Below are positions 19,151 to 57,748 of a stretch of 64,000 nt of DNA, one piece after another (position 1 is the first letter of the stretch; every line of letters starts with the position of its first letter). A model generated the notes under the pieces. That model was not told the DNA's origin and did not search any database. It was given only the letters and a program-made list of their open reading frames with translations. This DNA is from a virus: IMG/VR virus record IMGVR_UViG_3300023270_000001, positions 4,140 through 68,139 of that record. The stretch is one strand, 5' to 3'. A program made the position numbers and the translations under genes.

Positions 19151-19422
19151 GACTTCCCTTTGGAGAGTTGCTCCAGCACGAACACGCGAGCGCCATCCGG
19201 CAGCGTGCCACCAACGAGTTTGCTGTGACGCGGGTGCACCCCAAGCCACCCGCGATCCAGTGCAAACGTCGTTGCGGCGCGCTCGAAGTTGGCATCTTGG
19301 TCGGCGGCGTCGTCCCATGGGAGGCGGACCCCGCGGGGATGGCACTGCGTTTTGACGCGGATGTAGGCGTCACGCACATTGGTCGGCGGGATAAACTCAC
19401 AAACGATGGCTTGGCGCGGCAT
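19147..19422 (-). CDS. Hypothetical protein
   Basis: AAGGAG RBS downstream of repeat element C. Confidence 0.6.
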   Translation of the reverse strand: MPRQAIVCEFIPPTNVRDAYIRVKTQCHPRGVRLPWDDAADQDANFERAATTFALDRGWLGVHPRHSKLVGGTLPDGARVFVLEQLSKGKS

Positions 19423-19430
19423 GGCAAGTG

Positions 19431-19532
19431 GCTCCTTGCCCTCCAGGAGGGCGGTGCGGTTGTTGTCGCTCTCGGTGGCAGTATCGGCTCACCAGGATGG
19501 GTCGACCATCCGTGGTGAACCTGTACCCCCTA
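19431..19532 (-). repeat. Repeated intergenic hairpin element, copy C
   Basis: CTCGGTGGCAGTATCGGCTC-hairpin-CTGTACCCCCTA plus GCCCTCC-A-GGAGGGC palindrome. Confidence 0.75.
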
Positions 19533-19703
19533 CCGACCGGCGGCAGCGAGAATGCGTTGCTCGGCGATCCACGCACCGGCGCGCGGCCCGGTCTGGTACG
19601 GCTGTGCGGCAACCTTGCGGGACTGCGCGCAGTTGTACGCCGAGAGTTGCTCGGGATGCGGGGCGGCGAACTTGACAGAGTGCGGCATGAATCGATCGGA
19701 CAT
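19530..19703 (-). CDS. 57-aa hypothetical protein missing from the ORF track
   Basis: GGAGA RBS, ATG at 19703, stop TAG forms the edge of element C. Confidence 0.5.
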   Translation of the reverse strand: MSDRFMPHSVKFAAPHPEQLSAYNCAQSRKVAAQPYQTGPRAGAWIAEQRILAAAGR

Positions 19704-22224: not shown

Positions 22225-22436
22225 CGAACAGCCTGCAGGTTGCCGACGTTGATGTGACGCTGTCCGTAGTCGCTAGACTCGTCGGTGGCTACGAAGTCTC
22301 CAGTGCTGCACAGGCTGCAGTCGCACGTCTGGACTACCCACCGGTCAAGCCCAGCACTGCCAGTGTACGACCCGGTGTTTTGAAGGAATTTCTTAGTAAA
22401 ACTAACCCTCGTTCCCGGTGCGAATTTCTTGCTCAT
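22221..22436 (-). CDS. Hypothetical protein
   Basis: AAGGAG RBS downstream of element A. Confidence 0.55.
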   Translation of the reverse strand: MSKKFAPGTRVSFTKKFLQNTGSYTGSAGLDRWVVQTCDCSLCSTGDFVATDESSDYGQRHINVGNLQAVR

Positions 22437-22443
22437 CTCATAA

Positions 22444-22534
22444 CTCCTTCCCCCAGGGGGCGGTGTTTTGGCTCGGTAGCAGTATCGGCTCGTCAGAGTG
22501 GGTCGGCCGACCCTGACGAATCTGTACCCCCCTA
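22444..22534 (-). repeat. Repeated intergenic hairpin element, copy A
   Basis: CTCGGTAGCAGTATCGGCTCGTCAG...CTGACGAATCTGTACCCCCCTA. Confidence 0.8.
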
Positions 22535-22900
22535 CAGAGTCGGAAATCCGGTGTCCGTGACGCGTTGTAGGGTGGAGGACAGTTGCCGCTGTCCAGTCAC
22601 GCCTAGGCCGGCCTGATCCGCGCACAGGACTGCGAGAATCGCCCACTCTCTGGCGCTCAAGTCGGTGATGGATTCTACGATCTGCTCGACCTTGAGCAGC
22701 GTTGCGGCGCCGCTCTCGCTCTGCGCGTCGACGAGGCACTCCATGGGGTTCGGGGCGCGTTGCGCAGGCTGCACAGCGTCGGTCTTGCGCTTCGCGTCGC
22801 ACACCTTACACGTGTGCGCGCATGTCGTGAGGACGTTTTTGCAGAGAAACTCGCATGTCGGGTCGTGCAGCCCGCTTGGTGGAATGAACCCGTTGCTCAT
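22532..22900 (-). CDS. Hypothetical Cys-rich protein
   Basis: CEFLC...CAHTCKVC; stop TAG abuts element A. Confidence 0.55.
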   Translation of the reverse strand: MSNGFIPPSGLHDPTCEFLCKNVLTTCAHTCKVCDAKRKTDAVQPAQRAPNPMECLVDAQSESGAATLLKVEQIVESITDLSAREWAILAVLCADQAGLGVTGQRQLSSTLQRVTDTGFPTL

Positions 22901-23339: not shown

Positions 23340-23639
23340 CTACCTCGCCTCCAGTTTGACATGCGGTCCATGGGCGGCGTCGCGCTCTGAGCCACATCCG
23401 AGACAGGCGTATGGCATCGGGTAACTGAACCCCTCGCGGCTACACGTCTTGCACTTCCATGATGTGGGCTTCACGCCATCGGCGTGAGCACGGATGTCGT
23501 CAGGAAGCCGGCCAGCGTCAACCCATCCGCTCTCTTCGGTCCAAGTGGCGACTGGCGCGCCGGTGACGGCACTGATGACGACGCAACGGCGCGCCGTCCA
23601 GGTAACTCGGTAGATACGGTGAGTTGTGACGGACTTCAT
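23340..23639 (-). CDS. Hypothetical protein with C-terminal Zn ribbon
   Basis: CKTC...CLGC; AAGGAG RBS. Confidence 0.6.
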   Translation of the reverse strand: MKSVTTHRIYRVTWTARRCVVISAVTGAPVATWTEESGWVDAGRLPDDIRAHADGVKPTSWKCKTCSREGFSYPMPYACLGCGSERDAAHGPHVKLEAR

Positions 23640-23645
23640 CTCAGA

Positions 23646-23737
23646 CTCCTTCCCGCCCCCAAGGGGCGGCGTTTGGCTCGGTAGCAGTATCGACTCGTCA
23701 GGGTTGGTCGGCCGACCCTGACGAGTCTGTACCCCTA
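23646..23737 (-). repeat. Repeated intergenic hairpin element, copy B
   Basis: CTCGGTAGCAGTATCGACTCGTCAGGG...CCCTGACGAGTCTGTACCCCTA. Confidence 0.8.
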
Positions 23738-23992
23738 CAGAGGAGAAATTTCAGGGTCGTAGCTACCGAGAAAAAGGCGACCGTGCTTTGTCAGCACGTA
23801 GGCGGAGCCTGAATTGCTGTAGCAAATCACGTAGACACGATGCCATCTCGCGCCATCCAACTGTAGCATCCAAGTAGTCGGGATTTTACTGCCGTACCCT
23901 GTGCGACTGCGGTTCCGGGGCGCCTCGGTCTGGCGCCGCGCAGAGACGCGCGTTGGGTCGAGGTACGAAACCGGAGTGCGCTCGCTGTCCAT
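23735..23992 (-). CDS. Hypothetical protein, first gene of the leftward array
   Basis: AAGGAGTCTGAGATG start; stop TAG abuts element B. Confidence 0.65.
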   Translation of the reverse strand: MDSERTPVSYLDPTRVSARRQTEAPRNRSRTGYGSKIPTTWMLQLDGARWHRVYVICYSNSGSAYVLTKHGRLFLGSYDPEISPL

Positions 23993-27212: not shown

Positions 27213-27830
27213 TTGCCCACCAACCCGAATAGCGCCCGCCTCGCCCCGCTCGTCCCCCAGTCGGGGATGGGCTATGGGGGGGCGCGTCTATTCTGGCTCC
27301 CGGACCAGGCGCCGACGTCGCGCATCGGGTACGCGGGCGCGCCGCAGACCATCGACGTCATGCGGCGCGCCGTGCTGGGCGACGCGGACCACTTCGAGAC
27401 GCGGCAACTCGCCGAGATCGTCTGCGAGTGGCTCGACAGCAAGGACTACACGTCCGAGTACCTGGCGCTGTACCAGTTCCTGCTGCAGCGCACGCGGTAC
27501 ATGCGCGACCCGCGTCGCACCGAGCTCGTGCGCGCCCCACACCTGATCAGCAAGCAGATCATGGCCGGTCACCGGCCGTCGCTCGATTGCGACGACATGG
27601 CGTGCTGGCTGGCAGCTGCGGTAATCGCGGTCGGTGGTCGCGCCGACTTCGCGACCGTCGCGTTTCAGCGGATGTTCTTCCAGGGGCAGCCGCAGTATTC
27701 CCACGTGTTCACGCGCGCCCTCGAGCCGCGAACCGGCACGCACATCGTGCTCGACCCCGTGGCGGCAGAGAAGACCCCGCAGATGCTCTCTCGCGTCAAG
27801 GCCGGGGCGACCTGGCCGGTGGCGGCCTAA
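27213..27830 (+). CDS. Transglutaminase-fold Cys-His-Asp enzyme, candidate maturation protease
   Basis: LDCDDMA (Cys), YSHVF (His), VLDP (Asp); alternative start ATG 27267. Confidence 0.75.
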   Translation: MPTNPNSARLAPLVPQSGMGYGGARLFWLPDQAPTSRIGYAGAPQTIDVMRRAVLGDADHFETRQLAEIVCEWLDSKDYTSEYLALYQFLLQRTRYMRDPRRTELVRAPHLISKQIMAGHRPSLDCDDMACWLAAAVIAVGGRADFATVAFQRMFFQGQPQYSHVFTRALEPRTGTHIVLDPVAAEKTPQMLSRVKAGATWPVAA

Positions 27831-56258: not shown

Positions 56259-56317
56259 CCGAGGACAAGACGCAGTACCACGGGCGCATCGCCCAGGCGT
56301 TCACGGTGGGCAAATGA
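56255..56317 (+). CDS. 20-aa coupling mini-ORF MTEDKTQYHGRIAQAFTVGK
   Basis: ATGA overlaps with both neighbours, fills the gap exactly. Confidence 0.35.
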   Translation: MTEDKTQYHGRIAQAFTVGK

Positions 56318-57075
56318 TCAACGTTGTCATCCTCGCCCAGGGCACGCAGAAGCGACTCGGGAACGCGTGCGGCCCCAAGCAACTGCTGTCGCTGGCCGCG
56401 TGCGCCGGCGCCCCCATCATCGTACGCACGCTGCGGCAACTCGGCGACCTGGCCAGACTGCGCCCTAGTCACTTCGACATCACCGTGGTCACCTGGAAGG
56501 ATGTCTGGGCGCAGTTGGTGATGCGACACCCAGACGCGCAGAACATCGCGAAGCATGTCGAGCTCGCCGATCCCGGCAACTCCTCCCTGAAGGGGATCGC
56601 CCGCTATCTTGCCCAGCGGGACAGCACTGAACCTCAGGAGGATCGGACCATCGTGCTCCTTGGGGACGTCTGCTACTCCTGGGCGGCCCTGAACGCGCTC
56701 CTGCTGGCCTCCAGAGAGCACGGGTTCGTGGGGACCTCCAACCTATCCGAGAGCGGCGGCGAACTCTGGGGCGTGGCCTGGGCGCGCAAATTCGAGGACC
56801 AGATGACCCGCGACCTGAGCGACGCGCTCCTGCGTCACCCGCCGTTCGAGGATGAGTACCAGCCGGGGCAGATGCGCCGGTGGATACTCGGCTGGCGCAA
56901 GGGGTCGCTGGCCGAGCGCGTGGATCGGCTGCGCCGGTCCGGTCTCTACTTCGACGTCGACGACTACACGATGGACGTGGACCTTGCCATCCACATCCCT
57001 AAACTCGCAGAGGCCAGCGTCCTGGCCAGGGAGGACGACAGCATGAACGGCATGACCTGGGACTCGCCGCGTTAG
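56314..57075 (+). CDS. Sugar/choline nucleotidyltransferase-like protein
   Basis: VVILAQGTQKRLG...PKQLL N-terminal motif; IVLLGD; DVDD. Confidence 0.7.
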   Translation: MINVVILAQGTQKRLGNACGPKQLLSLAACAGAPIIVRTLRQLGDLARLRPSHFDITVVTWKDVWAQLVMRHPDAQNIAKHVELADPGNSSLKGIARYLAQRDSTEPQEDRTIVLLGDVCYSWAALNALLLASREHGFVGTSNLSESGGELWGVAWARKFEDQMTRDLSDALLRHPPFEDEYQPGQMRRWILGWRKGSLAERVDRLRRSGLYFDVDDYTMDVDLAIHIPKLAEASVLAREDDSMNGMTWDSPR

Positions 57076-57157
57076 AACAACGGAAGCTCGCCGGGGAACC
57101 ATCGTCTGACAGGAGCGATGGGACTCGGAGGAGGTGGTTCGATTCCACCACGCGACA
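57066..57157 (+). ncRNA. tRNA-like RNA with a 28-nt structured anticodon region (pseudo-tRNA or tRNA mimic)
   Basis: Acceptor 6 of 7 pairs, U8A9, D-arm with GG, 5-bp stem, 4-nt variable loop, perfect T-arm GGTGG-TTCGATT-CCACC, discriminator A. Confidence 0.55.
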
Positions 57158-57412
57158 CAGGGCTGGGAGGCTGGGTCCCTCAGCGGCCCCTAAATGCGTT
57201 GGGACCTCGTGAGTTTGCAAACGCCACGTAGAGCGTGCTGACAGCCGGGAAAGACCGGCGACTCAAGGGGTGGCTCGGAACCCTGCAATCCGACGACGAG
57301 GCTCCGCTTGGTATCCGAGACGGGATTAGTTCGTTTGCCGAGACGTGGGTGATACATGATAGGCGCCCGACCCAGAGACGGGACAAGGCGGGTATTTCGA
57401 AAGGAGTCTGTG

Positions 57413-57748
57413 ATGTTGACGATACGAGCCTGGTTGCTCGGCGCTGTGGCGCTGAAAGTTCTATCTGATGTCGTCGATGCGATCGGCCGATCGGTCGACG
57501 TCGCGATCCGGGCCACAGATAAGAGGCCGGTGCTCGATTCGGTCGACAACATCAAGCACAACCGCATTCTGCTCTGCGGCGAGGAGCGCCAGTGGGTGAG
57601 CGGAACGGAGGCTGAGATCGACGACGCGGCCACCCGCATGGCTCGCCGCACCAAGCAGTGCGTCACCGTCGCGGTGGCGATCGCTCACTATCACCGGCGC
57701 GGATGCAAGGACCTCCCGGCCGGCGGCCTCGACGTCGTGGGGAATTGA
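57413..57748 (+). CDS. Hypothetical protein
   Basis: AAAGGAG RBS. Confidence 0.55.
   Translation: MLTIRAWLLGAVALKVLSDVVDAIGRSVDVAIRATDKRPVLDSVDNIKHNRILLCGEERQWVSGTEAEIDDAATRMARRTKQCVTVAVAIAHYHRRGCKDLPAGGLDVVGN

Follow-up and report, generated by a model that had tools for sequence, protein, structure and literature searches.

A transfer RNA-shaped element with a replaceable anticodon arm, and a widespread leader hairpin, in a non-coding locus of a viral genome

The 64,000-nucleotide (nt) stretch of DNA from a soil virus analysed here (the window; positions below are counted from its first letter unless another record is named) comprises bases 4140-68139 of the 86,414 base pair (bp) IMG/VR record IMGVR_UViG_3300023270_000001, which has direct terminal repeats and is rated complete. 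Two of its genes are separated by a non-coding stretch of 334 nt, at the upstream edge of which lies a sequence with the shape of a transfer RNA (tRNA) whose anticodon loop is replaced by a long helical arm. We call it the tRNA-like element. The same stretch contains a 21-nt hairpin, the leader hairpin, that recurs unchanged in phages of very different bacteria. We find that the scaffold of the tRNA-like element is kept among related viruses while its arm is replaced by other sequences that are still helical, and we consider it probable (roughly 0.8) that the element is a selected, structured RNA that does not decode. Its most likely setting is a modular non-coding RNA locus in which the arm is the payload and the tRNA shape is a handle for the host enzymes that trim tRNAs; for this handle-plus-payload mechanism itself we hold the odds to be about even.

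A check of the sequence bore out all of the tRNA parts that an earlier note on this DNA had listed (Table 1), among them the 28 nt that form an extra helix in place of a 7-nt anticodon loop, and the two further hairpins that it had seen downstream, GGTCCC/GGGACC and GCCGG-GAAAGA-CCGGC, are likewise present. The bases typical of a tRNA elbow are all in the element (U8, A14, G18, G19, A21, G26, G53, T54, T55, C56, A58 and C61). Its 5' end does overlap the upstream gene as claimed, the final three codons and the TAG stop covering the 5' acceptor strand and tRNA positions 8-10, and an in-frame 3-nt insertion or deletion (indel) in the relative L002 (below) confirms that the gene is coding up to this TAG. 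Nowhere else on either strand of the genome does a consensus TTCGA-type T-arm precede a 3' strand that can pair with an upstream 7-mer as an acceptor stem; T-arm matches with a relaxed loop found elsewhere fall inside coding sequence. In the minimum-energy fold of the native element the anticodon arm, with 9 further pairs beyond its 5-bp stem, forms together with the T-arm and the acceptor stem, while the canonical D stem does not. The element alone folds modestly better than its shuffles (z = -1.96).

Table 1. Features of the tRNA-like element and its surroundings (window positions)
Feature	Position	Strand	Description
Upstream gene	56314-57075	+	253 amino acids; weak MobA-like NTP_transf_3 relatives; TAG stop at 57073-57075
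tRNA-like element	57066-57157	+	G1 to discriminator A; about 92 nt; CCA not encoded
Acceptor stem	57066-57072 / 57150-57156	+	6 of 7 pairs; C2.A71 mismatched
U8, A9	57073-57074	+	read from sequence
D-arm	57075-57089	+	GAAC / AACGGAA / GCTC; A12.C23 mismatch; A14, G18, G19 and A21 present
G26	57090	+	read from sequence
Anticodon stem	57091-57095 / 57124-57128	+	CCGGG/CTCGG
28-nt arm extension	57096-57123	+	replaces the 7-nt anticodon loop; internal loop GAA/GA
Arm helix	57099-57104 / 57116-57121	+	CCATCG/CGATGG, 6 bp
Arm tip loop	57105-57115	+	11 nt, TCTGACAGGAG
Variable loop	57129-57132	+	AGGA
T-arm	57133-57149	+	GGTGG-TTCGATT-CCACC, perfect
Discriminator A	57157	+	read from sequence
Spacer	57158-57238	+	81 nt; hairpin GGTCCC/GGGACC and conserved ...CCCCTAAATGC... 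block
Spacer hairpin	57174-57179 / 57201-57206	+	GGTCCC/GGGACC
Leader hairpin	57239-57259	+	21-mer TGACAGCCGGGAAAGACCGGC; 5' UGACA
Leader hairpin stem and loop	57244-57248 / 57255-57259; loop 57249-57254	+	5-bp GCCGG/CCGGC; GAAAGA
Gap tail	57260-57409	+	hairpin UCGGA/UCCGA; CNGAGACGKG words; GGAG ribosome-binding site at 57403-57406
Downstream gene	57410-57748	+	start GTG 57410 or ATG 57413; small protein, no known family

The upstream protein has 270 metagenome homologues, of which three exceed 70% identity; by this measure the close relatives are L002/L003 (89% amino acid identity), L004 (84%) and L005/L006 (76%), and conservation was compared in four viruses, that of the window plus L002, L004 and L005. 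In all three relatives the tRNA-like element occupies the corresponding site, and the TAG stop falls on identical tRNA positions. Pairwise identity among the four is 82-94% in the last 450 nt of the upstream open reading frame (ORF), 93-100% in the 5' scaffold, 91-100% in the 3' scaffold, 40-74% in the arm, 71-94% in the spacer (which thus differs by 6-29%, and by 24-29% in five of the six pairs), 100% in the 21-nt hairpin and 49-85% in the rest of the gap. With one exception the scaffold differences sit in the acceptor stem: positions 8-31 and 39-65 together have a single substitution in 51 nt, U40 to C, by which a G.U becomes a G-C pair, and the elbow-forming bases (T54, T55, C56, A58, G18, G19, U8 and A14) are unchanged throughout. 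The scaffold is thus better conserved than the coding DNA beside it. A scaffold that is kept while the arm is replaced, and replaced by arms that stay helical, indicates that the scaffold is under strong purifying selection. Covariation across homologues had been proposed as a check: pairing is kept in the arm and the spacer, and the changes in the acceptor stem are uncompensated.

How far does the element extend beyond these viruses? In relatives at about 55% identity (L007, L009 and L251-L254), the syntenic 7-9 kilobases (kb) hold neither the tRNA-like element nor the leader hairpin, and the two modules are therefore taken as acquisitions of one sub-lineage. Scans of IMG/VR for the exact scaffold pattern returned a single close relative, blastn of the locus against a phage database found no match, and the contigs recovered from four DNA runs were all identical and from the same strain, which added neither new variants nor transcript ends. 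Scaffold-pattern scans of JGI metagenomes gave one unrelated match and no more. That match (L010:5811-5910; Ga0315910_10002045) has a 15-mer from the D-arm region in common with the element; a T-arm and a CCA end are also present, and Rfam scores it weakly as the 3' fragment of a transfer-messenger RNA (tmRNA).

The arm is 28 nt long in the window, 53 nt in L002, 37 nt in L004 and 28 nt in L005, and it is helical in all four. The window and L005 have the helix CCATCG/CGATGG in common, with differing tip loops; in L004 the helix is CCTCG/CGAGG, one A-U pair being gone from both strands, and the arm (L004:3803-3840) contains an imperfect 11-nt tandem duplication (CTCGGATGGCG / CTCGGAGGAGG); the helix of L002 is longer and unrelated, with a GCAA tetraloop as its cap. 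Thus three viruses have tip loops of 11-12 nt that differ in sequence and the fourth has an unrelated 53-nt arm. The similarity of the arms departs from phylogeny, since the arm of the window is nearest to that of L005, whose genes are the most distant. The earlier note had likened the CTGACAG at the tip to the anticodon loop of a valine tRNA and had pointed out a second CTGACAG downstream; the motif is confined to this virus, in what is the least conserved part of the element, and the resemblance to the downstream copy, which is not kept in the relatives, looks coincidental. A hammerhead reading of CUGACAG was rejected by eye, as the hammerhead core needs CUGANGA and a GAAA after helix II. 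We also note that the L004 duplication offers two alternative 3' strands to the anticodon stem. An 8-nt match of the L004 loop to downstream UUCCGACG was dropped, being absent from L005 and the window. Outside the window, at 78798 and 78873 of the full record (G000:C1), there are 10-11-mers complementary to the 5' strand of the arm helix (GGAACCATCG), 75 nt apart; a single match of this kind is at chance level, and the pair suggests a small repeat.

Do programs built to find tRNAs recognise the element? At its default settings ARAGORN reported 0 genes in the native element and its tmRNA mode reported none, and over the whole 86-kb genome it found zero tRNA and zero tmRNA genes, so the element is not one member of a set of viral tRNAs. 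The native element was unmatched in Rfam, both in the window at gathering score and in 56800-57600 at E<=10 (where sR19, at E = 4.4, is a chance match), and the Infernal check that the earlier note had named thus gave no family. When the 28-nt arm is swapped for a 7-nt loop, ARAGORN calls a tRNA at its default threshold. Like a canonical tRNA (RF00005), the element has a 7-pair acceptor frame, U8, a D-arm with G18 and G19, a 5-bp anticodon stem, a short variable loop, a consensus T-arm and a discriminator A. Unlike one, it has 28-53 nt instead of a 7-nt anticodon loop, no U33 and no conserved anticodon, it has acceptor mismatches in all copies, and its native score is below the Rfam and ARAGORN thresholds. 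Having no conserved anticodon, it cannot decode and is not an intron-bearing tRNA. Its arm is also roughly 9 pairs too long for the geometry with which a tRNA spans the ribosome, and a decoding tRNA was rejected on both grounds.

The second module of the locus, the leader hairpin, is far more widely distributed. The exact 21-mer occurs in more than 118 IMG/VR contigs and in more than 120 bacterial genome contigs from many phyla; among the matches listed, the host contigs include Pseudomonas, Yersinia, Serratia, Bordetella, Rhodobacter, Bacteroidales, Clostridia, Planctomycetia, Spirochaetales, Omnitrophota, Melainabacteria and Eggerthellaceae. Phages of Pseudomonadota, Bacteroidota, Bacillota, Planctomycetota and Spirochaetota carry identical copies. 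Cyanophage copies have one mismatch, and 39 records of cultured or named phages have the hairpin at an identity of at least 99%, including Enterobacteria phage mEp390, Stenotrophomonas phage Pokken, Pseudomonas phage Medea1, Cronobacter phage ESP2949-1 and Klebsiella phage P7641. Across 88 non-redundant copies, in which the G+C content of the flanks runs from 27% to 68%, conservation ends outside about 24 nt, and the consensus reads c-UGACA-GCCGG-GAAAGA-CCGGC-A, with G never occurring at either of the next two positions. A search with a structural regular expression showed that the stem covaries: there are 13 stem types (for example GCCAG/CUGGC, GCUCG/CGAGC, UGCGG/CCGCA, CAUCG/CGAUG and AAUCG/CGGUU), with the GARAGA loop, the closing G-C pair and the 5' UGRCR kept. 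The hairpin is absent from Rfam, no paper in the searchable literature contains its sequence or parts of it, and keyword searches found no description; as the signature of a modular phage RNA system, the hairpin appears to be undescribed in public resources. Its loop region (57249-57257, GGAAAGACC) is identical over 9 nt to a segment of 23S ribosomal RNA (rRNA) which we take to be the A2058 region (Escherichia coli numbering), a resemblance that serves only as a lead, since a 9-mer rRNA match is expected about 1 time in 5 by chance.

The surroundings of the hairpin in other genomes connect it to tRNA-shaped RNAs. Among the matches listed, ARAGORN places the start of a canonical tRNA 3-8 nt past the hairpin in 29 of 119 viral copies. 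By a strict test of tRNA shape (7/7 acceptor pairs, a perfect 5-bp T-stem and a T-loop pattern), a tRNA-shaped module lies 2-10 nt downstream of 53 of 242 copies, compared with 8 of 4840 random positions in the same loci; 19 of these 53 modules are of canonical length, 14 are 79-95 nt long, 14 are longer than 95 nt, and 6 are 70 nt or shorter and have no anticodon arm. Modules that end within 200 nt upstream were found at 34 of the 242 copies and at 178 of the 4840 random positions. In the window the hairpin shares the strand and the non-coding locus of the tRNA-like element, which ends 81 nt upstream and so falls within that range, and nothing tRNA-shaped follows it. The long-arm design itself recurs 4 nt past the hairpin in L072, an unrelated 59-kb viral contig, where the module has a normal acceptor, an identical AACGGAA D-loop, a long helical anticodon arm, a 4-nt variable loop and a T-arm. 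Other sequels to the hairpin are intrinsic terminators, a ribosome-binding site with an ORF, and other folded RNAs, and in mEp390 it stands downstream of the repressor gene in the immunity region.

Several single loci deserve mention in their own right. In L046 and L053 the hairpin is followed, 4-7 nt on, by 58-60-nt tRNA "top halves" made up of an acceptor, a normal D-arm and a T-arm, with no anticodon arm. In the lambdoid phage mEp390 (L249:2501-2700; JQ182729.1, about 27250-27472) it lies just past the repressor gene and a small ORF, and opens an unannotated folded RNA of about 260 nt that is closed by the helix ACACAAC/GUUGUGU and has a terminator at its end. In Pokken (L250:2001-2368; MN062186.1, 17953-18320) about 350 unannotated nt, probably another non-coding RNA module, separate the hairpin from a tRNA-Ile/Tyr/Pro cluster. 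In six IMG/VR contigs (L048, L059, L067, L085, L087 and L116) the hairpin occurs as three variants, spaced by about 50 nt, whose stems are compensated (GUCCG/CGGGC, UGCGG/CCGCA and GCCGG/CCGGC). After these triple hairpins comes a ...GCTGTGTGTAGTCTTGGC-terminator block that also follows the mEp390 hairpin; the arrangement is reminiscent of the immunity regions with P4-type CI RNA.

How might the tRNA-like element be made and used? RNase P, RNase Z and CCA-adding enzymes identify their substrates by the elbow and by the distance from it along the acceptor/T stack; the anticodon is dispensable to them (PMC4919913). On the handle-plus-payload mechanism, the tRNA shape would serve as a handle for host enzymes that read only the elbow and the acceptor end: RNase P would cut at G1, 3' trimming and CCA addition would follow, and a stable RNA of about 92 nt would be released from a long early polycistronic transcript. 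The variable arm would act as the payload, in the form of a hairpin that carries specificity and binds RNA or protein, as in the C4 (P1/P7) and CI (P4) regulators, and its rapid turnover does suggest a specificity determinant. The leader hairpin would set this unit off from the one that follows. A cut at G1 would sever the upstream messenger RNA (mRNA) 7 nt before its stop codon; since this removes the stop, processing of the RNA and expression of the upstream gene may be coupled.

The element resembles several known RNAs. The specificity of C4 and CI lies in loops that differ among related phages. The variable part of the tRNA-like element is a hairpin loop too, and C4, CI and M3 (phi80) are small phage non-coding RNAs that are cut from longer transcripts by way of a tRNA-like acceptor end (PMC5499578; Hartmann 1995, PMC41593; Forti 1995). 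All three are RNase P substrates and have no equivalent of the T-loop (PMC5499578), unlike the element described here with its full elbow. Membership of the C4 family was discarded, as Rfam gave no match at E<=10 and complementarity of the arm loop was not above chance. YrlA has its 5' and 3' ends in a long stem, with the acceptor side closed and the order of parts permuted. The tRNA-like element differs from it in having the normal tRNA order (no search for a Ro/Rsr gene was made), and a YrlA-type Y RNA was rejected, Rfam giving no match. The two are alike in mimicking the elbow and in having a long helix in the place of the anticodon arm, YrlA being an Rsr-bound tRNA mimic (bioRxiv 10.1101/312249). 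A tmRNA (RF00023 or a permuted form), in which a split tRNA-like domain surrounds a tag reading frame and pseudoknots, was also rejected, since ARAGORN -m and Rfam found none and the acceptor, D and T arms are contiguous. Non-decoding tRNA-shaped modules that recruit RNase P or RNase Z are represented by mascRNA and menRNA (of MALAT1 and NEAT1) and by the TMERs of murine gammaherpesvirus 68. Here the likeness is that of a tRNA-shaped module inside a longer transcript with other functional hairpins before or after it; these are nevertheless eukaryotic or animal-virus systems of unrelated sequence, and mascRNA, which is processed by RNase P (PMC11693755), has a shortened anticodon arm where the tRNA-like element has a lengthened one. 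The element thus resembles known tRNA-shaped handles and RNase P-matured regulators and is a member of none of them by sequence or architecture.

A number of results weigh against this reading. The acceptor stem is imperfect in every copy, with 6/7, 6/7, 6/7 and 5/7 pairs in the four viruses, and its changes break pairs rather than compensate: the mismatches lie at differing positions (C2.A71 in the window, A7.A66 in L002 and L004, C1.C72 and A7.G66 in L005). Such uncompensated mismatches are odd for a substrate of RNase P or of the CCA-adding enzyme; the 5' strand is also coding, and the overlapping coding sequence may be their cause. Covariation is seen in the arm and the spacer alone, the available sequences being just four and fairly close. 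As a whole, the 347-nt gap does not fold better than its shuffles (z = +0.63), which gives no thermodynamic support for one large folded RNA. For targets of the arm loop, a search with exact-complement k-mers gave chance-level 9-11-mers, and a scan of duplex energies gave no match at the homologous place in the three relatives. Neither of two run searches listed an RNA run containing the locus. A cut at G1 would leave the upstream mRNA without a stop, which looks costly. Lastly, the tRNA-like element lies 81 nt upstream of the leader hairpin, and not directly behind it as do the modules at most other loci.

Could the element instead act purely in cis? It might be an mRNA element at the end of the upstream gene, a punctuation, stability or translation signal that makes or protects the mRNA end or tunes termination at the embedded UAG, with the excised RNA having no job of its own. 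The stop codon does lie inside the structure in all four viruses, other structured elements of this genome begin at TAG stops, and in many phages the leader hairpin stands at unit boundaries, before tRNAs, ORFs and terminators. A mere cut site, however, needs no conserved D-arm or base of the anticodon stem and no maintained long helical arm, and hairpin-type RNase P substrates manage without those parts (PMC5499578); the relatives at 55% identity, moreover, do without the tRNA-like element. We regard this alternative as unlikely, though it deserves real weight.

The earlier note had suggested a tRNA-shaped decoy, for example for anticodon nucleases or sensors of uncharged tRNA, or else the first domain of a larger non-coding RNA. 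What stands of this is a non-decoding tRNA-shaped module of a larger non-coding stretch. As a decoy or sponge, the RNA would sequester a tRNA-attacking or tRNA-sensing factor of the host, for instance a defence nuclease, a modification enzyme or a stress sensor. The perfectly conserved elbow and T-arm would suit this role, and phage tRNAs do counter tRNA-cleaving defences such as PARIS (PMC11464382). But anticodon nucleases and ribosome-bound sensors of uncharged tRNA both need a defined anticodon loop, the known tRNA-targeting defences likewise mostly read that loop, and in this element the loop is absent and the tip that replaces it is the part that varies most; the element is, in addition, single-copy and has an imperfect acceptor stem. 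The decoy is thus an improbable explanation.

It is still less probable that the element is a decaying pseudogene, that is, a viral tRNA that was broken by an insertion into the anticodon loop and whose remainder has not yet decayed. The failure of ARAGORN and Rfam to detect it, the acceptor mismatches in all copies and an arm whose length varies through indels and the tandem duplication of L004 are what such decay might produce. The single change in 51 nt of the D-arm, T-arm, variable loop and anticodon-stem base, against 6-29% in the spacer and 26-60% in the arms, is not, and neither are arms that stay helical or the recurrence of the design in the unrelated L072. An attP-like attachment or crossover site copied from a host tRNA gene is very improbable: the genome does encode a tyrosine recombinase, and the arm, where integrases commonly cross over, is swapped between relatives, but this only tyrosine recombinase gene is 56 kb away, an attP normally contains one half of a tRNA while here both halves are conserved, and the viral and metagenome scans for the scaffold pattern found no host tRNA with this scaffold. 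That a short intron is spliced out to give a functional, decoding tRNA is hardly credible: with introns allowed and a lowered threshold ARAGORN does call tRNA-Pro(tgg) with a 21-nt intron at this place, but the call means little because the same settings give 20 calls across this genome (and the default none). For the nearly identical L002 scaffold ARAGORN gives Leu(cag) with a 45-nt intron, so that the anticodon is not conserved. A bulge-helix-bulge with staggered 3-nt bulges is absent (the internal loops GAA/GA and GA/AA lie at one level), a group I intron would need a much longer insert and has no Rfam match here, and position 33 would not be U.

What, then, might the leader hairpin do? A sigma-70 promoter was rejected, as there is no -10-like conservation after the hairpin and tRNAs start 2-10 nt downstream of it. 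It may mark a boundary or a processing site, it may be a hairpin that protects the 3' end of the upstream fragment once RNase P has cut, or it may act on RNA polymerase in the manner of boxB or put. That it is identical across phyla speaks for a partner which all bacteria share. The boxB of the lambda nut site is similar in its 5-bp G+C stem, its purine-rich GAAA-type loop and its place in leaders before structured RNAs and terminators. BoxB sequences are phage-specific and bind a phage protein; the leader hairpin differs in being an identical 21-mer across phyla, in its 6-nt loop and conserved 5' UGRCR, and in mostly preceding tRNAs, by 2-10 nt.

A broader proposal, which we put forward as doubtful, is that the tRNA look-alike and the leader hairpin belong to an undescribed phage RNA-processing grammar that crosses phyla. 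The 21-nt hairpin and the tRNA-shaped handles may then steer a universal host machine to carve out and stabilise small effector RNAs, a machine that may consist of RNase P and the tRNA 3'-end enzymes or may be RNA polymerase itself, and the hypervariable arms may carry phage-specific targeting for immunity, antisense or decoy functions. Mimicry of tRNAs is familiar from plant RNA viruses, eukaryotic long non-coding RNAs and a few bacterial RNAs. An element that keeps the whole tRNA elbow and has a swappable hairpin for an anticodon arm looks like a natural "tRNA scaffold", and it suggests that phages use host tRNA-processing enzymes for making non-coding effector RNAs. If the partner of the hairpin and the role of the arms were found, a widespread layer of phage RNA biology would become accessible to testing, and it could also be a source of portable RNA-processing parts.

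Between the tRNA-like element and the leader hairpin, the spacer hairpin reads GGTTGC/GTAACC in L002, where two pairs are altered and pairing is kept (one pair changed on both sides, the other became a G-U wobble); RNAalifold favours partly different pairing for it, and its structure is not settled. A spacer-like block (...CCCCATAAATG...) is kept in L007 and L253, two of the relatives at about 55% identity that have no tRNA-like element. The gap tail is mostly deleted in L005, which leaves 3 sequences, too few for covariation to be measured there. The word CNGAGACGKG occurs three times between the leader hairpin and the next ribosome-binding site (at about 57315, 57339 and 57372), and L005 retains one of these; the words could be operator sites or RNA repeats. 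A protein-coding reading of the gap was ruled out, because the relatives differ by indels whose lengths are not divisible by three, and because L002 and L005 lack the in-frame ATG at 57356 that lies upstream of the downstream gene. A scan of 56800-57600 for sigma-70 promoters and intrinsic terminators found none.

The virus sequence has a G+C content of 62-69%. The genes near the tRNA-like element are short, lie on the + strand throughout and are mostly of unassigned function, the annotated neighbours being a glycosyltransferase, a DUF1643 protein and a weak MobA-like nucleotidyltransferase. Another intergenic element is present in three copies on the - strand, at 19420-19545, 22434-22548 and 23636-23750, and each copy begins at a TAG stop. 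The order of its parts is TAG, GGGGTACAG, a hairpin with compensatory changes, GAGCCGATACTGCTACCGAG, a hairpin formed by a C-run and a G-run, and a ribosome-binding site, and it is a second instance in this genome of a folded RNA placed exactly at gene ends.

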